A DNA stretch of 41,902 nucleotides. Origin: a virus. Lineage: Duplodnaviria; Heunggongvirae; Uroviricota; Caudoviricetes. The stretch is taken from IMG/VR virus record IMGVR_UViG_2778261315_000003. One strand, 5' to 3'. This document shows, in pieces, positions 1,965 to 41,902 of the stretch (within the stretch, counting starts at the first letter, position 1; each line of letters begins with the position of its first letter). The notes under the pieces are model-generated. The model searched no databases, was not told the origin of the DNA, and saw only the letters and a list, made by a program, of their open reading frames with translations. Both the position numbers and the translations under genes were made by a program.

Positions 1965-2447
1965 CTATCTGGTCAGGGTGTCGTACTGTTTTTCGCAGAC
2001 TCTTCCGGCTTCGGCTGCCCGGTCAGCATACTCTGCCAGTTGTCTGTTTCTCTCGAGAGATTTGCTGAGCACGTCGGCAAGCAAAACTCCGGTGTCTGCG
2101 GCTGACGTCCCAGCGCCGACAATGGCGTTATACTGCCTGAGCTGCTCACGGATGGCAAAGAGTTGTTGCTGCAACCGGCCAGCGCGAGCGGCAGCATCAA
2201 GAGCATCATTGCGCGCCTGGTCGATCCTCTGCTGCGCTTCACGTTCATTGATCGATTTCTCCTGTTCGTAGTGCTGACGAACTATCTCATCTTCAGCTTT
2301 GCGGTCTTCCTTCGCCTGCGCATACCCGGCATCGTACTGACGACTGCCGTGTGCATTCCAGGCTACAACTCCTGATATGACCAGAACAGCAAGCATCGCC
2401 ATGATAACCAACTGTTTCCAGTATGCTTTTGCGAATGCCCAGATCAT
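1965..2447 (-). CDS. Rz-like i-spanin (inner-membrane spanin)
   Basis: 160 aa, N-terminal TM helix then charged coiled-coil; directly downstream of endolysin with ATGA-type overlap; contains embedded lipoprotein ORF in another frame. Confidence 0.6.
1973..2209 (-). CDS. Rz1-like o-spanin, embedded in Rz in alternate frame
   Basis: ORF 1973..2248 contains [14 protein letters not shown] lipobox; start placed at internal Met (2209); Pro-containing short mature peptide, fully nested in Rz gene. Confidence 0.55.
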   Translation of the reverse strand: MMLLMLPLALAGCSNNSLPSVSSSGSITPLSALGRQPQTPEFCLPTCSANLSRETDNWQSMLTGQPKPEESAKNSTTP

Positions 2448-3073
2448 ACCGCCAGCACCTTACTGGCAGTGACGTACCGCGCGCGCCGGTCGTCGATGCC
2501 ATTCCTGCCACCATTGATAATCAGAGTTACACGTGCAATATCGCCGGTATACTTCATGCAACCTTTGCTGGAGAAGAACCACGCCGCGCTACGAGCCGCG
2601 TATTCGTCCTGCGCCAACAGTTCAGGATTCTCCAGCAGGTCAACTTTCAGACCGTTTCCACAGTCACGATAGTTATTCAAACCGGTAATCTGGATAAGCC
2701 CGCGCCCACGGTAATTCCAGCCATCACCAGGGGCATTGTTCCCCATGCGTTTGCTGTACACCAGATTTGCGATCGCGCGCTGGCGCTCGAGTGGCAATGG
2801 TGGTTCACCAGCACGGCGACCAAGTGCATTAGCCTGCCCCTGAGTGAGACGCCCAGCCCGAACGAAGTTAGCCAATCCGGTTACGCTGTAGTTGAAATTT
2901 TCCTGCAACCGGGTGAAGCCTCCAGACTCATGCCCGACCTGAGCAATAAACATTGCCTGATCTTCTGGTTTGCTGATACCAAACTCTTTCATCGCAGAAG
3001 TTATATGCGAGAACCAGCGAGCGGCCAGTTCCTCGCTGATACCAGCAGCTCGCTGGAATTGTTTAATCTCCAT
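2444..3073 (-). CDS. endolysin, glycoside hydrolase family 19 (chitinase-like)
   Basis: 209 aa; motifs [30 protein letters not shown] typical of GH19 phage lysins. Confidence 0.85.
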
Positions 3074-3371
3074 GTTTAGACCTCGTTATTTTGAAAATCT
3101 GAACTACGTTACCGCGCGTTTTAATGACTGCAGCAAGCATGACAGCGTTGATAATGACCTCAGATAAATCCACAACCATTGGCGTGCGTAACCAGATTGC
3201 ATAAGCGACACGAACTGGAATGCTGGCCGCAGCAACAATCAGGAAATAAGCAAGCCACCCACCCCATCGCCTGTGTTGAGAACCGTTTCTCCGAAATGTG
3301 GCAACTCGAACTGCTATACCGGCGCAAATAACCGCATTGGTGGTAAGCAAAAAAAGCTCATGAGTTACCAT
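3063..3371 (-). CDS. putative holin (about 3 TM helices)
   Basis: 102 aa, three hydrophobic helices, charged C-terminus, immediately upstream of and overlapping the endolysin start. Confidence 0.55.
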
Positions 3372-3771
3372 CGTCTTTTCTCCCCGGAATTAACTCGCGT
3401 GGATTATCGGAACGGTGATAGAGCCAGATCCCAATTCGCACAGCGACGATTGCTGACACAAATGCACCGGCAGAGAAAACAATCCCTTTCTCGAAAGAAT
3501 CCTGTGTGATTGTAGGGATCAGGCTGGCTATGCCGATAAGAATTGATGCTGCTGGTTTGTAGAATAGAAGTCCGCAGAGAAAGCTAAGCATCGACAAGAG
3601 CACGCGACGACGAATGGGATACTCTACCGCAGAGGTAACAAAAATCACCGCCCCAGCCAAAGACCCCAAAGCAACCTCAGGAGGAACTCCTGCTATCACT
3701 GCCGCCAAAGAACTCATGCTAAGCCACTGATTTAAAGTTTCACTGGTTAGTTGAGCTGACATGTTTTCCAC
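3358..3771 (-). CDS. lysis-cassette membrane protein (holin or antiholin-like, about 4 TM)
   Basis: 137 aa, multiple hydrophobic segments, first gene of lysis cluster after an AT-rich promoter region. Confidence 0.45.
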   Translation of the reverse strand: MENMSAQLTSETLNQWLSMSSLAAVIAGVPPEVALGSLAGAVIFVTSAVEYPIRRRVLLSMLSFLCGLLFYKPAASILIGIASLIPTITQDSFEKGIVFSAGAFVSAIVAVRIGIWLYHRSDNPRELIPGRKDDGNS

Positions 3772-4109
3772 CGTTTATATGCATAACTACCTCCTGAACA
3801 GTAAAGCATTACGCATGATAAACCATTTATGGTTTTTTGTTACCCGATATTATCAATCCAATTCGCGATGGTCAAAACATATCCACAGCGGTAAGTTTGA
3901 GTGTTTTCATTTCCAAAACTTTATACAAAAATATATGCAGTCTGTTATTTTTACGCACAATAAAAACACGATACCAGCTATTTCGCCATAAATACAATTT
4001 CCTTTAATGCTGCCAACAGAGCCTGCAAAACATATAACAGAACACATAAATAACAGGCATAATATAGATTTAATAATCTAAGTGCATATAAATATCATTT
4101 AAGAAGTTA

Positions 4110-7619: not shown

Positions 7620-8348
7620 CTATCGTTTCGCTTTGTGCTCATCCCAGCACGTTTTGCACCATGCCATTAAGCCGTCCGCATTTTGATTATTAGGGTAAAA
7701 GCTGGTTCGTTTTCTGCGGACATTACAAATTGGGCACCACTTCATATGGCGTGTATTCTTTGGGCCATCGAGACACCTTGCACACCATTTAGTCAATCCA
7801 TCTGGATTTTTTGACGATTTCCTGAATTTTTCATATGGAAGGTTTATTCTGCATCGCAAGCACTGCTTGCTACCACTTGAAACTCTGTTAGCTGATTCTT
7901 CTTTTGGCGGCGATACAGAAGGTATTCTTGCTGGCTCTGATATTGCCTGAGGTGCTTTTTTAGATGACTGAGACGATATGTCATCACCAGGGAATCTTCC
8001 ATGATATGCCGGACGCGTTGACACTCCAGGTGGAATCTCAGCTGTAAACGGCTTTGGCTGAATCAGTTGCCTCTCTTTTGCTAACTCCTGCTGTTTATAA
8101 TATGTCTGGATTACCGCACTATCATAAGCAGGAGGTGCGGAAATATTAGGCGCATTACCTCCAGTTTTTTGAAACTGAGTAGAGGTGTGTTCTATCACCT
8201 GTGTACGATTAATCGTTATCTCCCCATCTTCGGTCTTTATCGTTTTGTTATGATTAACGACCGTACGATCAGAGATCTTAGTCTTGTTCTGGTTGATAAC
8301 GTAAATAATCACCGCAACCACACCAACAACTATCCAGAAAACTTCCAT
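7620..8348 (-). CDS. membrane-anchored protein with Pro-rich linker and tandem C4 zinc-ribbon-like repeats
   Basis: 242 aa; N-terminal TM FWIVVGVVAVIIYVI; repeated C-x2-C ... NPDGL..WC..C units near C-terminus; own promoter region with two operators upstream. Confidence 0.6.
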   Translation of the reverse strand: MEVFWIVVGVVAVIIYVINQNKTKISDRTVVNHNKTIKTEDGEITINRTQVIEHTSTQFQKTGGNAPNISAPPAYDSAVIQTYYKQQELAKERQLIQPKPFTAEIPPGVSTRPAYHGRFPGDDISSQSSKKAPQAISEPARIPSVSPPKEESANRVSSGSKQCLRCRINLPYEKFRKSSKNPDGLTKWCARCLDGPKNTRHMKWCPICNVRRKRTSFYPNNQNADGLMAWCKTCWDEHKAKR

Positions 8349-8476: not shown

Positions 8477-8743
8477 ATTTACATCGCACTCCTCTTGTGC
8501 CATAGTAATCGGGCACTGGCAAAATCCAGTGCCGGGATTGGTCTCCCGGATTACTACAGAGGCACATATGCCGCATAAGCGGTTTTTTTATGTGTAAAGC
8601 GCACCTATTCTATGGTGGGCTGTGTGGGGGCACCGAAAGGTGCGCCGGGTTCCTTTGTAGCCGGTAAGACCAACTCTGCACAGTTCACCACCATCTGATT
8701 GGTCTCAGCGGTGGTGATTAACCTAACTACAAAGGTGATCGCC

Positions 8744-9436
8744 ATGAATACCAAACCTTCCATCTTTTCCTTTGAGTCATCCTGCCAGATCCGTATGTTC
8801 ATGATTGACGGAGAACCTTGGTTTGTCACCAAAGATGTGTGCAATGCTTTGAATATTGATGTTACACAAGCGAGAAAACTTGATAAAAAAGGCTGGAACA
8901 AAAAGGGGCTGTATTCAATACAGACCCCTGGTGGAATACAAGAACTATCCATCGTTTCAGAATCAGGTCTCTACATCCTTATTCTGCGTTGCAAAGAGGC
9001 AATGACTGAAGGAACGAGAGCATTCAGATTTCTTGAATGGGTTACAGGTGAGGTTCTTCCTCAGATCCGCCGCACCGGAAGTTACATTAAAAACTCGCTC
9101 CCGCAGGAAGAACGCATAAAGATGGTTGCCGACCAGGTAGCCAACGCCACGGCGTCAGCAGTAATGCAGGCGATGAAGATAGAGAACAAAACCTACAGTG
9201 CCCCACTGAAGCCCGGCTACCGCAGCCTGATTCATTCTCCGTCTGGTGTTCTCGGCCTGACGGAGAACTCACTGCTGATGAATCTGCTGAACCAGTTACA
9301 GGACGACGGGCACGACGTATCGGGCGCGGCGGCGGAGCTGACCACCATGTTCTGTTACATCGTTGGTGTGAGCAAATGCCTGCGTGATATCCAGACACAC
9401 GCAGAGTACATCAATGACAAGGCAGGGTTCTTCTGA
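8744..9436 (+). CDS. Bro-N domain protein, putative antirepressor
   Basis: Bro-N signature FSFE...IRMFMIDGEPWFVTKDVCNALNI...TPGGIQ...SESGLYILILR...FLEWVTGEVLPQIRRTGSY; start at Met 8744 with AGGTGA RBS. Confidence 0.8.
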   Translation: MNTKPSIFSFESSCQIRMFMIDGEPWFVTKDVCNALNIDVTQARKLDKKGWNKKGLYSIQTPGGIQELSIVSESGLYILILRCKEAMTEGTRAFRFLEWVTGEVLPQIRRTGSYIKNSLPQEERIKMVADQVANATASAVMQAMKIENKTYSAPLKPGYRSLIHSPSGVLGLTENSLLMNLLNQLQDDGHDVSGAAAELTTMFCYIVGVSKCLRDIQTHAEYINDKAGFF

Positions 9437-10359: not shown

Positions 10360-10382
10360 GCCCGCGCTGCGGGCTTTTTTGT
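10359..10382 (+). terminator. rho-independent terminator
   Basis: GCCCGC-GCTG-CGGGC followed by TTTTTTG immediately after the stop codon. Confidence 0.6.
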
Positions 10383-10452
10383 GGGCGAAACAAAAGTCAG
10401 TGCTACACTCATTGACGCCACATTGAGGTGGTTTATAGATGGAAATTTCACA

Positions 10453-10614
10453 ATGAAAAAAGCATTTGCTGCACTGTTCGTTTTGTTGTCTCTGGTAGCT
10501 TCAACTCAGGCCTTTGCCGGTCGTTGTCAGCACGACAGCGATACTGCCGCTGACGGCTCCCGCTGCGGTGGGCATTCTGCGGATTCCCGCCCGGGCGGCG
10601 GTGGCATTCGTTAA
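10453..10614 (+). CDS. small secreted Cys-containing peptide (about 53 aa)
   Basis: Start at internal Met MKKAFAALFVLLSLVASTQAFA (signal peptide), Gly/Ser/Asp-rich mature part with 2 Cys; candidate TTGACG-16-TATAGA promoter upstream; terminators on both sides. Confidence 0.45.
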   Translation: MKKAFAALFVLLSLVASTQAFAGRCQHDSDTAADGSRCGGHSADSRPGGGGIR

Positions 10615-10645
10615 AAACAAGGCCGCGAAAGCGGCCTGTTTGATC
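10612..10645. terminator. bidirectional terminator between convergent genes
   Basis: GGCCGC-GAAA-GCGGCC hairpin flanked by A-run on one side and T-run on the other. Confidence 0.55.
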
Positions 10646-11495
10646 ACTGTGCAGTTTTCGCTGATCGATTTTCAGCTCTAAATTCAAGAACCGTTTCAAT
10701 ATTTCTTTCCTTCAGCATATCAATAACATTTTTATTCATTTGACTATCACTGGTTAATAACTGGTAAACGTTGCTTCTCTCTTTATCAGAGTTTTCTTTA
10801 ACAGCTGCTTTGCATGCCAAATGCTTATTGAAATTTTCTACATCGCTAGTACAGGAATTTACGGCTGCTGATGAAATATCAGACGCTGAAGAAACACCGT
10901 CATCCAAACGTTTTATAGCATTTTCTATACATGAGTTAAGGGAATAAACGACAACTGAGCGATACCCTTCAGACGCACACCATTCTAAATTTCTTGAAGG
11001 ATCGAGTGGTTTTACTTCGCTGGATTGAATTAACTTGTCAAAAACTGACTTATATTCAATCTGTTTTTTATCTATAGCCCATACTTCAGTAGCTGATTTA
11101 TAATTCCCCGTATGCCTATTAACATCAAATCCATGTTTTATAAGCAAATCTGCCCATGAAAGATTTATTGATTCATTGTTATGAGGCCATTTTCCTGTCA
11201 GAACCGCCCCCATAGACCCCATATATCCGCCATATGATGGTATAGCACCATGGCTCAGTAACTTCTCTGCAACCACAGGGCAATTAATTACATAAGAGGC
11301 GTAAAGCCCATTCCATAAAGCCCCTCTATAGTAATCGCCACGATTAGGTTCTTTTAAGTCGATAGCCTTTGATAATTGTTCGCACGTTTTGCATGCATCA
11401 AAGTTATCCTTATTGCATTGCAATGAACTGGCAGCTGTAGGATTTACAGAGACTATTGAAAGCACTATGCCAAAAAACAAATTTATTTTTTTCAT
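10644..11495 (-). CDS. AT-rich secreted protein of unknown function (moron), possibly ankyrin-repeat-like
   Basis: 283 aa; N-terminal signal peptide MKKINLFFGIVLSIVSVNPTAA; visibly lower G+C than neighbours; segments ...AEKLLSHGA... and ...ADLLIKHGFDVN... loosely fit ankyrin consensus; start 1 bp after the gp16-like stop. Confidence 0.7.
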   Translation of the reverse strand: MKKINLFFGIVLSIVSVNPTAASSLQCNKDNFDACKTCEQLSKAIDLKEPNRGDYYRGALWNGLYASYVINCPVVAEKLLSHGAIPSYGGYMGSMGAVLTGKWPHNNESINLSWADLLIKHGFDVNRHTGNYKSATEVWAIDKKQIEYKSVFDKLIQSSEVKPLDPSRNLEWCASEGYRSVVVYSLNSCIENAIKRLDDGVSSASDISSAAVNSCTSDVENFNKHLACKAAVKENSDKERSNVYQLLTSDSQMNKNVIDMLKERNIETVLEFRAENRSAKTAQ

Positions 11496-11496
11496 C

Positions 11497-14400
11497 CTAT
11501 TTCATCTGCTCTTCAACTTTATTTAGTAATGGTGATATCGCCCACAGATTCTGAAAAGGTAGCATTTTACGGACAGCGTGGGTTTGCTGGCTGTCAAATT
11601 CTCCGTTAAGTACACCATTTGCAACCGTCGCGGCATCACCGCCAAGATCAAAGGTAGGACCAAGTAAAGCACCAATAGCATTACGACTCTGAAACCTTGA
11701 TACCGGAGGCGCACCAAACATCGCGCCAAGACCAAACCTACCGCCGCTTATGTTCTCAACGGTATTCAGCGGCTCAGAGAGCCAGCCAAGCATTCCGCCC
11801 CGGTCGATCCCCTCTTTCACAAGGTTATTCCAGCTGTAGTCGATATCGCGACCGCTTAACTTCTGTTTCATCATATAGACCATTGAGCCAAGCGCAATCG
11901 TGCCAAGCGCACCAAGATAGAATGCAGCATCGCCCTGCTGGATACCAGATACCAGCACCCTGTTATGCTGTGCGAAGATAAACGTTTTGAACTGCGTGAT
12001 CATCTTCCAGCCTTCTTTACTAAAAAACAGCGGTGTATCACCTACGCCAGGCGTTACAATCACTGAGTCTACATCTTTCAGCACTGCAGACTGGAAAATC
12101 TCTCTAGCGAAACGGTCATCCCACAGATGACTATGCCCGGTTAACAGCCCGTCCATATCCTCTCCGTGCTTCCCGAATTGCTCCCCGATTCGGCGCAGAA
12201 CATCTTCATTGATGCCGACCTGTGCCATCTTCCGCATTTCACTTTTGGAGAGCGTGCCACCAGCAGAAACTTGGCGAGCCGCGTCAAGTATCCTCGACTG
12301 CACTATCATCCCAGACCATGATTTAAGTGCGCTGTTCCACTGATTCATCAGCGTCCAGTTACCGAATTTCTGCGTCATCCAGTTCAGACCTCGCTCAGCG
12401 GCGCTTCTCCGGCTATAGGGGTCAGTAAGATCCGCTATAGCCTTTGTACGCGTAGACAGGACATAATCAAGCCCAACGGCCATTTCTCGCAAATCCCTGG
12501 TTGCAATTTTCACTGAGTCCATATTTTTAAGCATGCTTACCATTGGTCCGAGAGATTTTCTCAGGCCATGCTGCATCATCGGTCGCATCAGATCAGTTGC
12601 AGCGGAGACGGTCATTCCACCAAGCAAACGGAGGAAGTTAATATTCCTAGCAACTCGCCCGGCACGAACAAAGAAACTGCGTGGATCTTGAGGTGCGCCG
12701 TAAGTACCAAGCAGTCGGTCACGCATAGCCGTAATATCCCTAATATCAGCCTCCCGTTGCTTCTCAAGAGCTGCACGTCGTTTAGGTGTTTTAGCCTCTT
12801 TTATTAGCCGGGTATATTCCTCACTAACCTGACGGATTTGCTCCCCCATATCTTTACGGCCAAACTGCGCAGTCAGCTCAATTTCTGGTGCCACCTGCCG
12901 GAGATAACTTTCCATGATGTAGTTAACATCTGATTCAAGAAAATCTTCTATACGCTCATCAGGAATAAGCAGCGTTCGGCTTTTAGTGAAACCAGCCCGA
13001 CCAACGAGTCTCTCTGGGATAATATCGGCTGGTACAAGCCCGGAAGGTGCGCCTATTATTTTATTCACGATCTCGTCAGCAGCGTCCTCTGCTTCCTCTC
13101 GGGATAGAGGCTCCATCTGCTTCAGTGCTCGCTCGCGGCTTGCATTCAGCCTTGTGGTTGAATTTGTCCGTTTTTGCAGTCGGCGAAGCTCAGAACGATA
13201 TTTCCGTGGATTATCCAGCAACTCCATATGGCGCTGATAGACAGGAAGCTCACTCTTTGCCTGCGCTATATCATCAAGGCGTGTTTTAAGGTCAGAGCTT
13301 TCTTTCATCATTCTTGCCTGAAGTTTTTCTGATAAAGTCTCGGCCAACTCTTTTTCTATTCTTGTAAGACGCGCCTGTGTGTCAGTCTCCTGAGATATAA
13401 GCTTATTTCGTTTATCCAGTTCTTCCATGAGTAGAATTTTTTTACCAGACCATTTCTCCGCTTCAGCGATTTCACTAGCGAGAGCATCAGCGCGCGGTGC
13501 TGATTCCTCTGCAGTTTTTAGCAATGAATTTATCTTTTCAATTCGCTGACCTGCTTTGTCAGCACCTTTGGCACTAATCCCTTGTATCCAGTTGGCAATT
13601 CGCCCTCTGAATTCAGTGCGGTCGGAAAGTATCTTATCGAACTTATAAATGCGGGGAAGATAACTTTTCGCCGTCACGACATCGATATCCTCAGGAAGGA
13701 TCCCCAGTTCCTGCATACGGGCTTTTGTGGTCTCGAAAATGGGGCGGATTCTGGCGGCTGCTTGTGAAACCTCAGGAATATCACTCTGATCACCACGGCG
13801 CATAGCCATGCCAACAGCTTCATTGAAATCAATAAAGTTCATCCTCTTCACGCCGCGGGCGCTAACAGATTTGCTGTACTGCTGGTAAGCATCACGAGTA
13901 GCTTCCATCTGCTTATAAAGCATGGCGTCGTATTGCTTAATCTTAGTCTCGACTGCCGTAAACGTAGCCAACCCCTCATCATTTTTGGCGAAGAAATAGT
14001 TATTTTCGGCAAGCTGCTGGTTAATCTGACGGGAAACAAGAGATGGTGATTGCGCCAAGCGGCCAGCAGGAGTGACACTCAACGTTTTGTTAGCAAGTCC
14101 AAGTCCAGCAAGCTGTTCCTGATCGAGTGTGGTATTGAAAACCTGAGCTGCACCAATGCTTTGAGGAGAATCCATACCTCGCAAATGATTACCTACTGAG
14201 TTAACCACTGCCTCGCGCGCGCTAGGTCCAGCAAGTAGCTGTGCACCAGCACCAAGGATCCCACCAACGAGAGCATCAACAACAACGTTCGATACGCTCT
14301 CCATCGGTGAGCGAGCTTCCTGAGTGGCCTGCAATGCGGCCTCTGAAGCAACACTGCCAGCAGCATTGGCTAAAGCAAAACGTCCGGCTGTTTCTGCAAT

Positions 14401-14886
14401 ACGACCGCCACGAACGACAGCGCCGAACGGAATAAACATAGAAATCGCATTGAATGGATCTGCTAATCTCATTGCTACAGAAGAGACTGTACCAGCAAAT
14501 CCCAAGCCTGAATTGTATTCCATGTCAGCTCTCTGCTGATCGATTCGATGTTTAATTGCCATTGTTTCTTCATGCGAACCGGAGTTGATAAACGAATCTG
14601 CAAAATCTTCATAGCCTTTAATATCTGCTGCATCGTTATCAAATGGGTTATATCCTTCAACCCTGTCAAACTGACTGAAAGGAGCACTGGCAATAAAGCT
14701 ACCCAGCGTGTTATCTATACGAAATGCTGCTTGTCTAGACCTTTGAACGCGTTGATCACTGGTAAATGGGTTCACAGCAGAAAGCAAAGAAGGTGTTTCC
14801 ATATAGAAATTACTGTCATCAGGTGCTGCTATTTGCTGAATATCCTCGCCAAGCAACTCTTTAGGATCCTGTTCATATATCGGCAT
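11497..14886 (-). CDS. internal virion (ejection) protein, T7 gp16-like
   Basis: 1129 aa; position after gp15-like gene; C-terminal region (..MITQFKTFIFAQHN.. / Gly-rich end) resembles T7 gp16 C-terminus by recall. Confidence 0.7.
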   Translation of the reverse strand: MPIYEQDPKELLGEDIQQIAAPDDSNFYMETPSLLSAVNPFTSDQRVQRSRQAAFRIDNTLGSFIASAPFSQFDRVEGYNPFDNDAADIKGYEDFADSFINSGSHEETMAIKHRIDQQRADMEYNSGLGFAGTVSSVAMRLADPFNAISMFIPFGAVVRGGRIAETAGRFALANAAGSVASEAALQATQEARSPMESVSNVVVDALVGGILGAGAQLLAGPSAREAVVNSVGNHLRGMDSPQSIGAAQVFNTTLDQEQLAGLGLANKTLSVTPAGRLAQSPSLVSRQINQQLAENNYFFAKNDEGLATFTAVETKIKQYDAMLYKQMEATRDAYQQYSKSVSARGVKRMNFIDFNEAVGMAMRRGDQSDIPEVSQAAARIRPIFETTKARMQELGILPEDIDVVTAKSYLPRIYKFDKILSDRTEFRGRIANWIQGISAKGADKAGQRIEKINSLLKTAEESAPRADALASEIAEAEKWSGKKILLMEELDKRNKLISQETDTQARLTRIEKELAETLSEKLQARMMKESSDLKTRLDDIAQAKSELPVYQRHMELLDNPRKYRSELRRLQKRTNSTTRLNASRERALKQMEPLSREEAEDAADEIVNKIIGAPSGLVPADIIPERLVGRAGFTKSRTLLIPDERIEDFLESDVNYIMESYLRQVAPEIELTAQFGRKDMGEQIRQVSEEYTRLIKEAKTPKRRAALEKQREADIRDITAMRDRLLGTYGAPQDPRSFFVRAGRVARNINFLRLLGGMTVSAATDLMRPMMQHGLRKSLGPMVSMLKNMDSVKIATRDLREMAVGLDYVLSTRTKAIADLTDPYSRRSAAERGLNWMTQKFGNWTLMNQWNSALKSWSGMIVQSRILDAARQVSAGGTLSKSEMRKMAQVGINEDVLRRIGEQFGKHGEDMDGLLTGHSHLWDDRFAREIFQSAVLKDVDSVIVTPGVGDTPLFFSKEGWKMITQFKTFIFAQHNRVLVSGIQQGDAAFYLGALGTIALGSMVYMMKQKLSGRDIDYSWNNLVKEGIDRGGMLGWLSEPLNTVENISGGRFGLGAMFGAPPVSRFQSRNAIGALLGPTFDLGGDAATVANGVLNGEFDSQQTHAVRKMLPFQNLWAISPLLNKVEEQMK

Positions 14887-17636
14887 TATTTGCCCCCTGC
14901 GTATATATTGCTCGGAAGGTAATTGGCTGAACCATAACCGAATGGTTTGGTCAGATCTGGAGGAGTATATCCATCTTTATTGCTGAACTGCGGCAGCGGA
15001 TTGCCTTCTCTCCGCACTCTAGCCTCATCAACACGCTGTTGCTGGAACTGAATGGTTTGCCTGTACATTGGAGATGTCAGCTGATCCGGCTTGAAACGAA
15101 CAGGGAGACCATTTTCTCCAATATAATTTCTCGGTTCTATCGCTCCGTTTGCGTCAGGCTGTAAAACCATAACAGCATAACTCCTATCCCTTGCCGTAAG
15201 GCCATCAGAAACAAGTATTAAGTCCGTATCACTGCGAGGACCGCCAAAGGATTTTGATTTAAGCTCGTGTTTTTCCTGCTCCCACTGCCCCTGTATCCAG
15301 TTACCAGCACCATTATTTACTCCGTACAATGCCTCAGGTGCATACTTCATAACCTCTGCTTTGCCATTAACTGTAGAAACTCCCCAGGTGGTTCTGATCA
15401 TGGCATTGGTCATTTTCTCAGCCTGTTCTGCATCGCCACCTGTCTGTACAAAGTTAGCATCGTAAATTGTCTGGTAATCTCGCTGATAGGCCGCATTTGA
15501 TTTTCCTGGATCGGTAATATCCGGAGACCACGAACCAAAGGAAGTCAGACTGCTGGCGTTATTTTGTGCAGCAGTTGCCCTCGCCGCGACATATTTTTTG
15601 TCTCGCATGGCAGTGGAAAGCATCTGTTTCATTCGGTCATCCTGTTGGAAAACCTGGCTGTAAGCCATATCAACAGCCTTATCCTCCGGCACGCCAGCGC
15701 GGGAATAATCGTAAACCTTGCCGTAAAATGCCATCGTACTTTTATCAAGTGTTGCCGCTGCCGCCGGATTATTATCGAATAACTGACCGTAGAATTTTGC
15801 CATCGGGACAACCAGCGCAGGATCTCTTGATGTTGCTCCACTGTTAAGCATTGTTTTAACCTGAGTTGGTATCATGCCGCTTTTAGTTGTGACGGTGACC
15901 AGTGTATTGATGCTCTGCGGATCAGATATGGAAAACGAAGGCGCGATATCCTGCGCGAAATAACGGTCTACCGCTGCCTGATTGTTTTTGTCGTTCGGGT
16001 CCAGCGGGAAGTTATTTTGCATTGAAGACACGAACCTGTTTCTTCCCTGCTGAATCTCCCACTCCCTATCCATCTCTTTAAATTTGGCCTGCATTTTCTC
16101 CCAGCGTTGCTGGTTAGCTGCAAATCCAGGAGTGTTTGGATCCTGTGGACGTAAACGTTCAAGAATGTCTTGTCGTCCTTCTGGAGTGAGGTCTTTAGCG
16201 GCACCAATGACACCTCCATATTGTATCTGCGCCTGCATATCCTTCCACTTCATAGCGCCAATGCGCGGACCATTGGCCCGGATAAAATCGTCCTCAGAAG
16301 GTAACTTCTCAGGTTTCAATCCTTCATCAAGGGCTGAATATGCATCTTTAACTACGGTGCTAAGCTGGTCCGCATACTGCTGGCGGTACTGATTTCTCAG
16401 CTCATTAGCCTGCCTCAATGCCTGTATTTGCATTTGAGGGCTCATAGCGTCAAATGCCGCATTGCCCGTATAACGCTTAGGTGAATCAAGGTTAGTTAGA
16501 CCAAGGGCTGCCGAGATACCAGTTTCAAGCTGTTCGGTGCTATAAGGCATACTGCCATTTTCGTGTTTAATAATCCCAGCACATAAAGCAGCTAGTGTCT
16601 TTGGGTTAGAGATATCAAGCTGATCATTCTCCCCAACACCAAGCTCACTACACAATGCCCTAATATAAGCATCAGTATTATTACCATCACTAGCCGGAGC
16701 ATAGCGATTAACAATCTCGCTAACGGTGTCATAGCCTTGACGCTGGTAAGACAACATATTTTTACCCAACGCGCGGATTCCATGCTCAGGGGTAGCAAAC
16801 GTTGCAAAACGTCCATCGCTACCGATCTGACCTTCCCACGGGTTAGATTTGCTCGCTTCAATATTACCAGGGTTATTATTACGTAAACCACGAGCATCCA
16901 ATGAATTACCATGTGATATTGCACGACTCACACCATCAAGATCCCCTGGCTCTCCATTAACCTGAAGAAACTCGTTGTATTTTTGAGCGATATTTCCTAT
17001 CCATGCTTGCTGCCCCATTTGTTCCTTGAGCTGAGTTTTCTGCTGAACACGCCACTCATCAGGAAGCCCATGCGCATCAGCGTATTGATCAATAGATTCA
17101 AATCGCTGCTTGGCTAAATCGACAAATGCTTGGTTATCGCTATATAGCCCCGCAGACTGAGTGACAGCCAATGCATTTCCTGACAAATACGTTTGATCTT
17201 GGAATTGCTGAAACTGCCCAACTTCATATCGACGTGCCTGATTGTAATAAGACTGCATAGACTGCTGGAGTTGAAAGGATAATTTATTCCTTTCCTCACT
17301 TTCAGGAATTGAGCCTAATAATGCCTGAGCCCTTTCCTGCATATTTTTCATAACAGCGTCACTCTGACCAAGAGCGTTTTTACCCTGTTTAGAAATCAGC
17401 CCATTTTCAGGGTTGTTAATCTGGTCATCTGCAAATTGGTTAAATTGCAGTAACGCCTCCTGGGCCATAGCAACATTCGCTTTCTGCCTGGCTTCACCAT
17501 ATGCCACCGCATACTGATCTGCGACATTCGCCAGCACCTGACCTGCTTGAGGAACATCGAAGGTCTGAAAACCACCGGTTTGCACACCACGACTTTGCAC
17601 CTGGCGTCCGGATGTAGTAGGAACAACAGGCATCAA
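14886..17636 (-). CDS. internal virion protein, T7 gp15-like, with central conserved motif block
   Basis: 916 aa; gene order gp14-gp15-gp16; central block RGLRNNNPGNIEASKSNPWEGQ...FATFATPEHGIRALGKNMLSYQRQGYDT looks like a conserved enzymatic or binding domain. Confidence 0.65.
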   Translation of the reverse strand: MMPVVPTTSGRQVQSRGVQTGGFQTFDVPQAGQVLANVADQYAVAYGEARQKANVAMAQEALLQFNQFADDQINNPENGLISKQGKNALGQSDAVMKNMQERAQALLGSIPESEERNKLSFQLQQSMQSYYNQARRYEVGQFQQFQDQTYLSGNALAVTQSAGLYSDNQAFVDLAKQRFESIDQYADAHGLPDEWRVQQKTQLKEQMGQQAWIGNIAQKYNEFLQVNGEPGDLDGVSRAISHGNSLDARGLRNNNPGNIEASKSNPWEGQIGSDGRFATFATPEHGIRALGKNMLSYQRQGYDTVSEIVNRYAPASDGNNTDAYIRALCSELGVGENDQLDISNPKTLAALCAGIIKHENGSMPYSTEQLETGISAALGLTNLDSPKRYTGNAAFDAMSPQMQIQALRQANELRNQYRQQYADQLSTVVKDAYSALDEGLKPEKLPSEDDFIRANGPRIGAMKWKDMQAQIQYGGVIGAAKDLTPEGRQDILERLRPQDPNTPGFAANQQRWEKMQAKFKEMDREWEIQQGRNRFVSSMQNNFPLDPNDKNNQAAVDRYFAQDIAPSFSISDPQSINTLVTVTTKSGMIPTQVKTMLNSGATSRDPALVVPMAKFYGQLFDNNPAAAATLDKSTMAFYGKVYDYSRAGVPEDKAVDMAYSQVFQQDDRMKQMLSTAMRDKKYVAARATAAQNNASSLTSFGSWSPDITDPGKSNAAYQRDYQTIYDANFVQTGGDAEQAEKMTNAMIRTTWGVSTVNGKAEVMKYAPEALYGVNNGAGNWIQGQWEQEKHELKSKSFGGPRSDTDLILVSDGLTARDRSYAVMVLQPDANGAIEPRNYIGENGLPVRFKPDQLTSPMYRQTIQFQQQRVDEARVRREGNPLPQFSNKDGYTPPDLTKPFGYGSANYLPSNIYAGGK

Positions 17637-33919: not shown

Positions 33920-34696
33920 TTACTTGATAAATCCTGCCGCCTTTCCCCGCCTGTATTCCTCCATCAGCCACTGCGCCGGTGTTATTCCCCCCAGGGTAGC
34001 GGCGTTAGGCATACACCCGAAACTTCGCCCTGGTGGATGGTAAACGTCTCTCCCTGTGTCCGGAGGCGTACTCATGGGTTCTGGCTTTGCCTGTATGCTG
34101 ATCACCGGATCGGGTATCTGCTGTCCGGAAGCCACCTTTTTCGCCCAATCATCAAGCAGCCTGCGCGCGTGTTTCTCAACCTCAATCTCGCTAAGCTGGC
34201 GCTGATACATTGCACGGCGGGTATCACATACGACCCAGTACATAACCGGATGCCGCCACGGGAATCTTTCGGGACCACCAGGATATAAACTTTTTTCCTT
34301 GCTGTACCGGTGAAACTCCGCCATCACATCGTCAATGGTGACGCCAAGAACCATCTTGCTGTCTTTACACCACTTGATAAATTGCCCTGGCGACGGCCAG
34401 AACGGAGATTCACTGGCGCGGGCGTGGCGCATACCAGCGTTAACCTGTTCCATTGTAGTGATCCCATTCTCCAGAAACGCAAGCATCCATTGCTTACGGA
34501 ATTCATTAAGTTTGTTCTGCTCCCTTATGGTCGAAACGCTTGCAGGAAATGCAGCCTGTAACTGGACAAATAGTTCATTGAAAATTCTAGCGACCTGCTC
34601 CTTTTTGCCATTGCTGTCACGCCGCTCTTCATGCACAGCAACACCATGCTCACGTAAGCGATCGTACTCATTGAGAAGTTCTGGAGTTGATTTCAT
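33920..34696 (-). CDS. replication protein P-like (helicase loader)
   Basis: 258 aa; strong resemblance to lambda P by recall (AFPAS...QWMLAFLENGITTMEQVNAGMRHAR...FWPSPGQFIKWC). Confidence 0.85.
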   Translation of the reverse strand: MKSTPELLNEYDRLREHGVAVHEERRDSNGKKEQVARIFNELFVQLQAAFPASVSTIREQNKLNEFRKQWMLAFLENGITTMEQVNAGMRHARASESPFWPSPGQFIKWCKDSKMVLGVTIDDVMAEFHRYSKEKSLYPGGPERFPWRHPVMYWVVCDTRRAMYQRQLSEIEVEKHARRLLDDWAKKVASGQQIPDPVISIQAKPEPMSTPPDTGRDVYHPPGRSFGCMPNAATLGGITPAQWLMEEYRRGKAAGFIK

Positions 34697-35510
34697 CCCA
34701 CACCCCTTCTATCCAGTCAGTGTTATTCCAGTCAAGCTCATCGCTTTTCCCGACGTTTTTTGATTTTCCCCTGATATGATTTACGTGCCTGGCGAATTTT
34801 TGTTCCCACTGAACCTGCGTGAACACTTTGCCCTCAGCCATCCAGTAATCCCGGAATGCAGCAAGTTCAGCAGGTGTAAATTCCGGTTCCGGCAGGGCCG
34901 TTCCCCACAGCGCAGCACGCCGTCGAAAATCCGGCGATGGATGCCAGCCATCGGCCATCGGAAATTTCCCAATAGGTTCACTCAGGCCATCCAGAAATGC
35001 AGGTTCTGCCACCTGCAACGGCGTACCGTTCGCTTCACTGGTCGGATCACTCTCGCGCGCGTGTGCTATGTGTGGGGTTTTATATATATCTTCCTCTTCC
35101 TCTGGTAACTCCTTTTGTAACGCTGTTGGCGTTACTTTTTGCGTTACTCGTTTTCGATGCTCTGCCACTCTTCTATTCGTAAGTGCACGTTTTTTCGATG
35201 ATTCTCCATTGTGTCGCTCAAAGTTTGGAAGAATTAGTTTGCCGTCATGATAAGCAAGCCATCCGACGCTAATGAGGGCGTCAGCAAATCCTGTAATAAA
35301 AGCGAGTCTATCAAGTACTCCTTTTGTAACGCTGCCAGCGTTACCGTCTATTGTTTGCTGGTCAGCCCATGCCCATATACGAACCAGCTTTCCAATAACA
35401 GCATCTGGATCAATACCCAGAATTTCTGCTATCTGAAAAATTTCAGGTTTATCAGGAGTGATAACTTCAACCTTAATCCAGCTGCTTGCCATAGGTTTCC
35501 CCTCTTGCAC
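34668..35510 (-). CDS. replication initiator with DnaT-like C-terminal domain (lambda O position)
   Basis: 280 aa; C-terminal DGWHPSPDF...FTPAELAAFRDYWMAEGKVFTQVQWEQKFARHV typical of DnaT-domain phage replication proteins; precedes and overlaps P-like gene. Confidence 0.7.
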   Translation of the reverse strand: MQEGKPMASSWIKVEVITPDKPEIFQIAEILGIDPDAVIGKLVRIWAWADQQTIDGNAGSVTKGVLDRLAFITGFADALISVGWLAYHDGKLILPNFERHNGESSKKRALTNRRVAEHRKRVTQKVTPTALQKELPEEEEDIYKTPHIAHARESDPTSEANGTPLQVAEPAFLDGLSEPIGKFPMADGWHPSPDFRRRAALWGTALPEPEFTPAELAAFRDYWMAEGKVFTQVQWEQKFARHVNHIRGKSKNVGKSDELDWNNTDWIEGVWDEINSRTSQ

Positions 35511-35685
35511 TCTTTAGTGCACAAGCAAATTCATTACGATGGCGGTTGGCGCTATTCATTGCACATTCAACACATGTTCCGTTCAGAACATACCTTTCAG
35601 AGAGATGGCCGTGACGGCACCGCTTTCCTGTGAAATAGCGATTTAACCCGGCTTTTGCGGCCTCCATTCTGGTTACTATCTTCAA
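35473..35685 (-). CDS. small zinc-finger protein (CII position)
   Basis: 70 aa with C-x-H ... C-x2-C pattern (RCRHGH...CVEC). Confidence 0.4.
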   Translation of the reverse strand: MKIVTRMEAAKAGLNRYFTGKRCRHGHLSERYVLNGTCVECAMNSANRHRNEFACALKSARGETYGKQLD

Positions 35686-39405: not shown

Positions 39406-39514
39406 GTGCGCTGCTAAGGCACTGGATCAAATGGTCAGGATGGTACTTATTCCTGGCCTCTGTTTCAGCATGGCTTTATCTGCTGGCATTAATTTTCAGA
39501 GAGGGTTGGATTAA

Positions 39515-39814
39515 GTGAGAAAGTTAAGCCAACTTGAAAAATATCACATGAATAAGGTTTCAATGCGCAGTCCGTCAAAGATTGTCGCCGTTACTCCTGC
39601 GGCGATAGAGATCGAAAAACGCGCGATTGAAAGAGAGAAAAAAGGGCAGTTCCGCATTGCCGCCCACCTTTGGCTTCAGTGTATGGATGTTGCTTCTGGT
39701 GATGTTGAACGTGCAAGGATCGCGATTCGCAGGGACCAATGTATCACAAAAGGTAACGGACTTCGCCGTGGCGACTATAGCGGCATAGGATGTTGTGGGG
39801 TGGTTTATGACTAA
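39515..39814 (+). CDS. PerC-family-like transcriptional activator (tentative)
   Basis: Segment EKKGQFRIAAHLWLQCM...VERARIAIRRDQCI fits PerC-like pattern by recall. Confidence 0.4.
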   Translation: MRKLSQLEKYHMNKVSMRSPSKIVAVTPAAIEIEKRAIEREKKGQFRIAAHLWLQCMDVASGDVERARIAIRRDQCITKGNGLRRGDYSGIGCCGVVYD

Positions 39815-40457
39815 GAAATACACACTAATCTATGCAGATCCACCCTGGGCATACCGGGACAAAGCCACAGATGGTAATCGCGGTGCCGGTTTTAAATATC
39901 CGGTTATGAGTGTGCTGGATATCTGCCGCCTTCCTGTGTGGGATTTGGCCGGTGAAAACTGTCTGTTGGCCATGTGGTGGGTGCCAACACAACCACTCGA
40001 AGCACTAAAAGTTGTTGAAGCCTGGGGATTCCGTCTGATGACCATGAAGGGCTTCACGTGGATAAAATGTGGTAGTCGACAACCAGATAAACTGGTTATG
40101 GGTATGGGACACATGACTCGCGCCAATAGTGAAGATTGCCTGTTTGCGGTAAAGGGAAAACTACCTCCGCGCATTAATGCAGGTATCGTTCAGTCATTTA
40201 CCGCACCGCGGCTTGAGCATTCAAGAAAACCAGATGTCGTTCGTGAAAAACTTGTGCAATTATTAGGCGATGTTTCTCGCATTGAACTGTTCGCCCGCCA
40301 GACGTCTCATGGCTTCGATGTTTGGGGTAATCAGTGCGAAGACCCGGCAGTGCAACTACACCCTGGATACGCGTTGGATATTGGCGGATTAACAAATGCA
40401 TTCAGCAATGCTCCGCTGTCACCAACAGACAACCAGGGGCGGGAGCGTGCTGCATGA
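39807..40457 (+). CDS. DNA N6-adenine methyltransferase (Dam-like, DPPW motif)
   Basis: Motif LIYADPPWAY near N-terminus; start placed at MTKKYTL. Confidence 0.8.
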   Translation: MTKKYTLIYADPPWAYRDKATDGNRGAGFKYPVMSVLDICRLPVWDLAGENCLLAMWWVPTQPLEALKVVEAWGFRLMTMKGFTWIKCGSRQPDKLVMGMGHMTRANSEDCLFAVKGKLPPRINAGIVQSFTAPRLEHSRKPDVVREKLVQLLGDVSRIELFARQTSHGFDVWGNQCEDPAVQLHPGYALDIGGLTNAFSNAPLSPTDNQGRERAA

Positions 40458-40651: not shown

Positions 40652-41902
40652 TTATTCTCCCGCCATCCACTTCTCAAACTTCGACGGGGAGAACGGAATC
40701 AGATCCGTATGCTCCCCGTCAATCCAGGAATCAATCATATCTGCCCACTGCTGCAACATGTAGGCGCGCTGTCTGGCGTATTCCGCTTTGTTATATACGG
40801 CGCGCACACCTTTCTGCTCATGTGCCAGAGCCTTTTCAATCCAGTCTGAAGGATAACCAGCCTCATGCAACAACGTACTGGCTGTACGGCGCATATCGTG
40901 TACGGTGAAGTCCTGAATATGCTCACCATCTTCATTTATTATTTTCACCGTTCTGTCGATCAGAGAGTTCAACGCGGCATTAGATAATGGCTTCCGGAAA
41001 TTGTAACGACCAGGAACCAGGTATTCACTTCCACCAGCGCACATCTGCAACCCAACCAATATATCCTGTGCTTGTTTAGGCAGGTAAATAACGTGCGCCC
41101 GGCTTCCCTTCATGCGGTCTGAAGGAATTGTCCATGTCCATTTTTTAAAATCTATTTCATCCCACGTTGCATTGGTGAATTCGCCCTTACGAACCATAGT
41201 GATAAGCACCAGTTTTAAAGCCATTTTCATAGTGCCCATAGCACCAATGGCATCCAGCGTGCGGAAGAACAGGCCAATTTCTTCTGGTGTCAGTGTTCGC
41301 TCTCGTGGTTTAAATATGGCGATAGACGAAGGTTTAATGTCAGCCGCAGGATTAAACAAACCATGACCACGGTCATTGGCGTGACGGTATACGCTACTGA
41401 TGATCTCCCTGGCCTGCACTGCTGTTGCCCGACCACCGCGTTCGACAATCCGGTCACACAAATCACGAACCATCGATGTGGTAATTTCAGCCATCATTTT
41501 GTTGCCAAGAACCGGAAGTATGTCACGGTCGATCACCGCCTGCTTCATTGCGCGGGTACTGTCAGCCAGGATGACGTGTTTCATATAACTGTCGGTATGT
41601 ACCGCAAACGTCTCGGCACCACGAATCTTTTTGATACCGTCACGTTTAGCCGCAGCCGGCGACTGGCCTGCTTTAAGCAGCTTCTTTGCAGCAATCAGTT
41701 CTTCTCGCGCTTCTGCCAGGCTGATACCGTCACGCCCATACTGCCCGATTACCAGTGTTTCGCGGCGACCGTTGATACGGTAGTCATAGCGAAACGAGAC
41801 CGTGCCTGACGTAAGCACAGCTACATACAGCCCGTCACGATCGGAGACCTTGTACAGTTTGTCCTGCGGCTTGAGGTTTTTTAATTTTGTATCGGTAAGC
41901 AC
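40652..41902 (-). CDS. int: tyrosine integrase, P4 / CP4-57 type (N-terminus at window edge)
   Basis: 416 aa; N-terminal arm-binding region and C-terminal catalytic region (HDMRRTASTLLHEAGY...RAVY); ORF reaches the window end with a GTG start. Confidence 0.9.
   Translation of the reverse strand: MLTDTKLKNLKPQDKLYKVSDRDGLYVAVLTSGTVSFRYDYRINGRRETLVIGQYGRDGISLAEAREELIAAKKLLKAGQSPAAAKRDGIKKIRGAETFAVHTDSYMKHVILADSTRAMKQAVIDRDILPVLGNKMMAEITTSMVRDLCDRIVERGGRATAVQAREIISSVYRHANDRGHGLFNPAADIKPSSIAIFKPRERTLTPEEIGLFFRTLDAIGAMGTMKMALKLVLITMVRKGEFTNATWDEIDFKKWTWTIPSDRMKGSRAHVIYLPKQAQDILVGLQMCAGGSEYLVPGRYNFRKPLSNAALNSLIDRTVKIINEDGEHIQDFTVHDMRRTASTLLHEAGYPSDWIEKALAHEQKGVRAVYNKAEYARQRAYMLQQWADMIDSWIDGEHTDLIPFSPSKFEKWMAGE

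Follow-up and report, generated by a model that had tools for sequence, protein, structure and literature searches.

A candidate accessory envelope protein with a divergent ankyrin-like domain, encoded in a variable slot behind the ejection genes of a Uetakevirus-like phage

Phages carry accessory genes known as morons, such as gp15 of HK97 or bor and lom of lambda. In phage P22, SieA blocks DNA delivery, and the mutations that escape this block lie in the ejection proteins gp16 and gp20 (PMC10883804). The small, helical protein Spackle of phage T4 carries a signal peptide and inhibits the ejected lysozyme gp5 in the periplasm (PMC7677548). In Bdellovibrio, the ankyrin protein Bd3460, which also bears a signal peptide, is encoded immediately after the gene of a peptidoglycan endopeptidase and inhibits enzymes of this type (PMC4686830). 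The sponge-phage protein ANKp, which is phage-encoded and likewise has a signal peptide, reduces phagocytosis and cytokine responses (bioRxiv 10.1101/608950). Here, we analysed a gene at 10644..11495 on the minus strand of the virus record IMGVR_UViG_2778261315_000003, a stretch of 41,902 nucleotides (nt) that we refer to as the window. We regard its 283-residue product as a previously uncharacterised envelope protein, accessory to the phage and built on a divergent ankyrin scaffold. By analogy with SieA, Spackle and Bd3460, it may be a periplasmic binder that hinders the entry of superinfecting related phages, a reading to which we assign a probability of roughly 35%.

A first-pass annotation of this stretch, made by a model from the sequence alone, had described the gene as encoding an AT-rich secreted protein appended to the operon of internal virion proteins; it had not mentioned that the open reading frame (ORF) is on the minus strand. 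We consider it very probable that this is a dispensable accessory gene and not a virion gene, that it sits in a cargo slot between the last ejection gene and the operon terminator and is read through from the late/ejection operon. The product, a two-domain protein, would be exported by the Sec pathway, lose its signal peptide by cleavage and fold in the periplasm with probably four disulfides, giving an ankyrin-like binding module and a helical module with an invariant, disulfide-framed LDDGxSxASDI loop. The gene is labelled 'hypothetical protein' in every record. It was assigned to the PHROGs family phrog_6118, which has no function attached, and scans of Pfam, NCBIfam and PADLOC gave no meaningful match for the protein or any member of its family. 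A literature search found nothing on the protein, and the sole paper on Escherichia phage EC.W1-9, which carries the gene, is silent about it.

The N-terminus of the protein was assessed heuristically as a Sec-type signal peptide (residues 1 to ~23, MKKINLFFGIVLSIVSVNPTAAS; 11427..11495, minus strand). It consists of MKK, a 14-residue hydrophobic core and NPTAAS, with small residues at -3/-1 near residues 22–24. The signal peptide claimed in the first-pass annotation was thus borne out at this heuristic level, and the same layout is kept in 14/14 family members as well as in stand-alone relatives of each domain. A lipoprotein was considered and rejected, as the protein has no lipobox. The mature part contains exactly eight cysteines, which are invariant in 14/14 aligned family members and account for eight of the 59 invariant alignment columns. 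Together, the signal peptide and the cysteines point to an oxidising, extracytoplasmic compartment as the location of the protein.

This predicted location bears on the idea of an ejected protein, put forward in the first-pass annotation, and more broadly on a virion-associated or ejected protein that travels with the gp14/15/16-like proteins into the next host. The gene does adjoin the internal virion protein genes and is translationally coupled to them. However, capsids assemble in the cytoplasm, and a cleavable Sec signal with eight invariant, disulfide-type cysteines points to the periplasm and is incompatible with cytoplasmic packaging. The gene is also missing from phages whose ejection proteins are 92–100% identical, as it is from phiV10, TL-2011b and phiv142-3, which marks it as dispensable. 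An ejected protein is therefore very improbable.

An exhaustive profile search of 1.84 billion representatives returned no more than 68 relatives, whose matches divide the protein into two modules. Profile positions 6–155 match stand-alone secreted proteins of ~155–190 residues, with E-values down to 1e-41, and positions 160–272 match other stand-alone secreted proteins or lipoproteins of 110–160 residues. The N-terminal module (N-domain; residues ~25–160; 11016..11423, minus strand) appears to be a divergent ankyrin-like repeat domain, at the level of both fold and profile, with about three repeats and an N-cap that holds C27, C35-x2-C38 and C72. The family profile matches multi-repeat proteins that are themselves strong Pfam ANK proteins, in four to six stretches each across profile positions 53–158 and with E-values from 5.5e-9 (the best match, with six stretches) to 8e-4. 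An hhalign comparison with a designed ankyrin repeat protein (DARPin) gave a probability of 83.9% and an E-value of 7.7e-6 over residues 64–138. An AlphaFold model of the N-module, built from a deeper alignment, reached a predicted local distance difference test score (pLDDT) of 89.6, and stacked helix-turn-helix and beta-hairpin repeats of ~33 residues are seen at the fold level.

Two segments had been singled out in the first-pass annotation as weakly ankyrin-like, AEKLLSHGA (residues 76–84) and ADLLIKHGFDVN (residues 115–126). Both are present and coincide with the parts that align to DARPins, and the motif formed by the second helix and loop occurs twice in the protein (EKLLSHGAIPS and DLLIKHGFDVN). 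The profile matches, the hhalign result and the AlphaFold model all strengthen the case for ankyrin-like repeats. The divergence of the domain is considerable: no Pfam Ank model (Ank, Ank_2-5) matches the protein or any of the 14 family members at E ≤ 10, and NCBIfam returned nothing. The TPLH motif is absent, and the invariant motifs ALWNGLY and KWPHNN stand in its place. Searches of PDB sequences, with the single sequence and with the profile, returned only DARPins and coiled coils at E-values of ~0.1–2, and a search of BFVD returned nothing at E ≤ 0.001. An enzyme was considered and rejected: across the wider N-domain family the only invariant residues are Cys, Gly, Pro and Leu, which is why the domain fits a protein-binding scaffold better.

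The C-terminal module (C-domain; residues ~166–283; 10647..11000, minus strand) is predicted to be a helical bundle, with an AlphaFold pLDDT above 90. It carries the motif C189-x9-LDDGVSSASDI-x-AAV-x3-C215, together with C173 and C228, and its stand-alone relatives have the motif C-x9-[LI]DDx[IV]SxASDI-x-AV-x3-C in common. No named or structurally informative relatives of the C-domain were found, and it was not found as a stand-alone protein in IMG/VR.

This architecture sets the protein apart from Bd3460 and other ankyrin proteins. It has about three repeats and not six, and it has no Pfam Ank match. Compared with Bd3460, it has a cysteine-rich N-cap (C-x7-CxxC-x33-C), ALWNGLY where TPLH would be expected, and an additional helical C-domain. 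The hydrolase encoded next to it is an ejected virion protein, whereas that of Bd3460 is a secreted enzyme. With ANKp of the sponge-symbiont 'Ankyphages', the protein has in common that it is of the ankyrin type, is encoded by a phage, carries a signal peptide at its N-terminus and is not considered part of the virion. However, the relatives of ANKp are defined by Pfam ANK signatures, which are absent here; the phage type and the host are different, and ANKp has no comparable C-domain.

The gene is AT-rich in comparison with its neighbours, as the first-pass annotation had stated. Its G+C content is 0.370, that of the adjacent gene ivpD, which encodes a gp16-like ejection protein, is 0.480, and that of the window 0.479; at third codon positions (GC3), the values are 0.289 for the gene and 0.436 for ivpD. 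Among all 852-nt windows (mean 0.480, standard deviation 0.037), it ranks in the lowest 1.5%, with only the stretch 3528–4105 lower.

From this composition the first-pass annotation had deduced a recent horizontal acquisition, a claim that the comparison with orthologues does not support. Full-length orthologues are found directly after the gp16-like gene, on the same strand and with a gap of 1–31 nt, and this position is kept in six lineages and in 30/31 IMG/VR loci. At the protein level they are 86% identical in Klebsiella, 61% in Serratia rubidaea, 59% in a metagenomic phage, 41% in Morganella and 39% in Providencia. These values are close to those of ivpC, the gene of the gp15-like internal virion protein (83% in Klebsiella, 57% in Serratia, 44% in Morganella and 35% in Providencia); in the metagenomic phage, the 59% exceeds the identity of ivpC (43%) and ivpD (46%) (partial alignment). 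All orthologues are equally AT-rich, with a G+C content of 0.35–0.40 in every lineage, while the flanks range from 0.40 to 0.55. The composition is not forced by the protein sequence, because the G+C content is 0.60 in a stand-alone N-domain relative from a high-GC element.

Between E. coli and Klebsiella, the ratio of nonsynonymous to synonymous substitution rates (dN/dS) is 0.155 for the whole gene and 0.10 for the N-domain, which indicates purifying selection. In the comparison of the E. coli window with the Klebsiella locus L024, the synonymous rate (dS) of the gene is 0.44, roughly one third of the values for the flanking ejection genes (1.26–1.62), while the divergence of the protein is similar to or above that of the flanks. 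The low dS may reflect either a more recent exchange of the cassette than of its flanks or a constraint on the synonymous sites of an AT-rich gene. Judged by these comparisons, the gene does not appear to be a recent arrival but one that has long been retained in its slot.

The same data address the view that the gene is recently acquired, functionless foreign DNA, with its AT-richness as the scar of acquisition. The G+C content of 0.37 against 0.48 and the variability of the slot would suit this view. Against it, six lineages that diverge down to 39% identity keep the ORF intact, at an unchanged position and with the same AT-richness, and the dN/dS of 0.155 (0.10 in the N-domain) is accompanied by 59 invariant columns that include the eight cysteines. 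Conservation and dN/dS effectively refute a functionless recent insert, and we give this view next to no credence.

Long retention does not mean that the gene is needed. It was found in 1/50,697 phage records, that of EC.W1-9, which makes EC.W1-9 the sole isolated phage that carries it. None of the plasmid records searched contained it. Among complete E. coli genomes it is present in 106/5,426 (~2%), in each case on the chromosome and labelled 'hypothetical'. The adjacent 3' end of ivpD is found in 120 E. coli genomes, so that some 14 prophages have the ejection gene without its companion. In DEC9B and CS5L, the same slot is filled by two unrelated ORFs, and in Klebsiella phage Kp4865-1, whose ivpD is 92% identical, by an unrelated ORF of 204 residues. 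More generally, relatives with 92–100% identical ivpD bear other genes in the slot, as do phiV10, phiv142-3 and TL-2011b. Because close relatives have unrelated genes there, the slot has the character of a cargo hot spot and the gene that of dispensable cargo. The appended, non-structural status suggested in the first-pass annotation is supported by these occurrences.

The alternative cargos in or just past the slot are mostly AT-rich, and about half of them are membrane or secreted proteins. These include phiV10 p21 and a Providencia protein, each with two transmembrane segments, phiv142-3 Orf12 with three (a homologue of which follows the gene in Serratia), an N-anchored protein of 187 residues in TL-2011b and a protein of 146 residues with a signal peptide in DEC9B. 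In the same scan, no transmembrane or signal segment was seen in the TL-2011b proteins of 314, 55 and 113 residues, the Kp4865-1 protein of 204, the DEC9B protein of 149 or the metagenomic protein of 70 residues. The alternative cargos gave no family matches, except for a P22_AR_N antirepressor-like protein in TL-2011b. There is further evidence that the whole region from the ejection genes to the tailspike is an accessory-gene hot spot. In the E. coli DEC9B prophage without the gene (locus L022), a YafO-family type II toxin is annotated at 978–1490 in the neighbouring accessory region.

In several respects the gene resembles a moron: it is present or absent between near-identical phages, deviates in base composition and is found at one end of a structural operon, ahead of a terminator. 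It differs in having no detectable promoter of its own and in being kept in one slot through deep lineage divergence, which is unlike a sporadic recent insertion.

The ATG start codon lies 1 nt past the TAG stop codon of ivpD (...ATGAAATAGgATGAAAAAA), as the first-pass annotation had noted. On the other side, a hairpin followed by a T-run (10610..10637, minus strand), with the hairpin at 10637..10620, begins 6 nt past the stop codon of the gene. This element resembles a rho-independent terminator, closes the late/ejection operon and is annotated as a terminator in phiV10. A consensus scan found no sigma-70-like site on the coding strand at the gene. A relaxed promoter scan of the 600 nt upstream in six lineages gave only weak matches, all inside the upstream gene and conserved no further than the closely related E. 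coli/Klebsiella pair. Rfam gave no RNA element in or beside the gene. With no room between it and ivpD, no convincing promoter and a terminator that follows at once, the gene is most simply expressed as part of the late/ejection operon, through read-through. This supports the proposal, made at first pass, that it is co-transcribed with the ejection genes.

Late expression would also suit a helper of the phage's own infection, which could protect the wall from premature damage or from lysis-from-without by sibling virions, tune the timing of lysis, or mask a secondary receptor against the loss of progeny on debris. The strict co-orientation with the late ejection genes, at a gap of 1–31 nt in six lineages and without a promoter, and the terminator directly after the gene fit such a function. 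Yet it is dispensable in close relatives whose structural and lysis genes are the same, it has no linkage to the lysis cassette (1965–3771), and the position of its domain relatives by repressor genes suggests expression in the prophage state. We regard a late-cycle helper as unlikely.

Further clues come from the genes that surround the stand-alone relatives of the two domains. Two C-domain relatives in phage DNA lie directly downstream of repressor genes, one of the CI-like type (L017) and one of the Arc-like type, the latter on a podophage-like contig (L094). One prophage tail/baseplate module ends with a stand-alone N-domain relative, and free-living Paraburkholderia, Burkholderiaceae and Bacteriovoracia have such N-domain proteins as well, on contigs of 137–895 kb that include one of Paraburkholderia unamae. 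In all, roughly 60 stand-alone relatives of the N-domain and 20 of the C-domain are known from the searches. Most metagenome contigs with stand-alone relatives were too short for context, and a scan of genome contigs gave one locus only.

Stand-alone secreted N-domain proteins of 155–190 residues in free-living Proteobacteria have the usual size of periplasmic immunity proteins. They raise the question of whether the protein protects against antagonists other than phages. In that case, its ankyrin domain would neutralise an incoming toxin that acts in the periplasm, for example a colicin or bacteriocin domain or, from a type VI secretion system (T6SS), a lipase or peptidoglycan hydrolase, and the lysogen would gain fitness. 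Periplasmic ANK proteins can serve as immunity proteins, as exemplified by Bd3460 (PMC4686830), and the purifying selection on the gene is in keeping with such a benefit. However, no toxin gene adjoins a relative in the few contexts seen, all full-length members are located in phage ejection operons, and no promoter for expression in the lysogen was found. A protection or immunity factor of this kind is a rather doubtful explanation.

An effector that acts on the animal host after its release by phage lysis, in the manner of ANKp or Shiga toxin, would be a further role for an exported ankyrin-type protein. Phage-encoded ANK proteins that bear signal peptides dampen both phagocytosis and cytokine responses (bioRxiv 10.1101/608950), the carriers of the gene are animal-associated Enterobacterales (E. 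coli, including clinical and avian strains, Klebsiella, Morganella, Providencia and Serratia), and expression from the late operon suits release at lysis. The stand-alone relatives of the N-domain, on the other hand, come mainly from environmental bacteria and metagenomes, and those of the C-domain from phage immunity regions. The Pfam ANK signature, the criterion that defines the ANKp relatives, is missing, and no secretion route past the periplasm is evident. We therefore find a host effector quite unlikely.

The evidence for a periplasmic factor that hinders superinfecting phages is circumstantial and comes from several directions. First, about half of the alternative cargos in the slot are envelope proteins. 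Second, the C-domain relatives adjoin repressor genes and the N-domain relative closes a tail/baseplate module; sites directly downstream of repressors are typical for exclusion genes expressed from prophages. Third, the layout of the locus parallels that of P22, in which escape from SieA maps to the ejection proteins. Fourth, the operon encodes an ejected muralytic domain, and periplasmic inhibitors of such enzymes are known, one of them an ankyrin protein.

The parallel with P22 extends across the region. Like sieA, the gene follows the last ejection gene and precedes an antirepressor controlled by antisense RNA and the tailspike. The order here is ejection genes, slot, small envelope ORFs, an isrK/C4-controlled Bro-N antirepressor and tailspike, and in P22 it is 16, sieA, mnt/arc/sar/ant and 9. 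The antirepressor segment (8513..9436, plus strand) converges on the slot. Rfam matches at gathering level identify isrK at 8513–8589 and a C4 antisense RNA at 8608–8695, directly followed by the Bro-N antirepressor ORF (8699..9436). This is a P1/P7-immI-like antirepressor control module, and it is placed as immI is in P22, between the ejection genes and the tailspike.

The muralytic domain lies in ivpC (14886..17636, minus strand), whose gp15-like product of 916 residues matches an endolysin-like structure (PDB 7q47_A, E-value 2.8e-15) at residues 248–400 (nt 16437–16895). The product of ivpD (11497..14886, minus strand; 1129 residues) belongs to phrog_342. The gp16 protein of T7 has an N-terminal lytic domain. 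Because the alignment of the ivpD product to phrog_342 begins only at profile position 192, this protein is predicted to have no such domain.

In the proposed mechanism, the mature protein would bind a protein partner in the periplasm and thereby interfere with the entry of superinfecting related phages. The likely partner would be the trans-envelope ejection apparatus or its muralytic domain, here the endolysin-like domain of ivpC. Produced with the late genes, the protein would act in the infected cell; action in lysogens would follow only if a promoter that escaped detection, or read-through, supplied it.

Several points weigh against this exclusion role. No sequence or structural similarity was found to Spackle, SieA, Ltp or any PADLOC model, and the likeness to SieA and Spackle, which is that of an envelope-located product, is one of analogy and not of homology, as neither shares sequence or fold with the protein. 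SieA is an integral inner-membrane protein, whereas the product predicted here is soluble; Spackle is encoded by an early gene, and this protein among the late genes. In P22, sieA is on the opposite strand and has its own promoter, unlike the gene in the window. No promoter of its own was found in any lineage, so that lysogens, where exclusion usually matters, may not express it. The arguments from position and neighbourhood are based on few loci, and the binding partner is one that we infer entirely. Finally, Kp4865-1 and the 14 E. coli prophages without the gene indicate that it is not needed alongside these ejection proteins.

A more specific version of the exclusion role is possible but doubtful. 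In it, a soluble periplasmic factor, composed of a disulfide-stabilised ankyrin-like binder and the LDDGxSxASDI helical module, would capture the T7-type ejectosome of incoming podophages, either its gp14/15/16-like proteins or its muralytic domain; both modules would also work singly, as secreted proteins of other prophages. Such capture would constitute a new mechanistic class of phage-encoded entry blocker. If the exclusion role holds in general, the protein would be a soluble, ankyrin-based periplasmic blocker of podophage DNA ejection and would open an experimental route to the passage of T7/epsilon15-type ejection proteins through the periplasm.

Regardless of function, the analysis defines two uncharacterised secreted domain families outside Pfam coverage. 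It also identifies a hot spot of AT-rich cargo in Uetakevirus-like phages, namely the slot that follows their last ejection gene, with about half of this cargo targeted to the envelope. For annotation, this concerns ~2% of complete E. coli genomes as well as prophages of Klebsiella, Morganella, Providencia and Serratia. The gene further cautions that AT-richness in a phage gene need not signal recent acquisition.

The window itself is a phiV10/epsilon15-like (Uetakevirus-like) temperate podophage or prophage, with an integrase at 40652..41902 and a T7-style tail/ejection module. The nearest record is that of EC.W1-9, with 99.8% identity across the region. Its GenBank record (PP445227, locus L097) annotates an integrase and a repressor (34301–35551 and 39460–40044), whereas the preprint that puts this phage forward for therapy claims that it has no integrase. 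The genes 5' of the phrog_6118 gene are, in order, those of an 823-residue tail protein, two small internal virion proteins of 154 and 188 residues, the latter matching Pfam T7_gp14, and then ivpC and ivpD.

On the other side of the slot, a small ORF on the plus strand (10381–10614; phrog_14503, 'membrane associated protein') converges on the gene. It probably starts at M25 (MKKAFAALFVLLSLVASTQAFAG...) and has a Gly-rich tail. The 260-nt stretch that contains it occurs in ~499 complete E. coli genomes, a much larger number than for the phrog_6118 gene. Between the antirepressor module and the tailspike lies an ORF of 242 residues (7620–8348, minus strand) with a hydrophobic segment at its N-terminus and cysteine-rich repeats at its C-terminus that resemble the zinc ribbons of endonuclease VII and Stc1. 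The stretch of lowest G+C content in the window, 3528–4105, falls to 0.33 and contains tiny ORFs only. Located between a holin-like ORF (3358..3771) and the stop codon of the tailspike gene (4169), it may be another cargo or regulatory spot.

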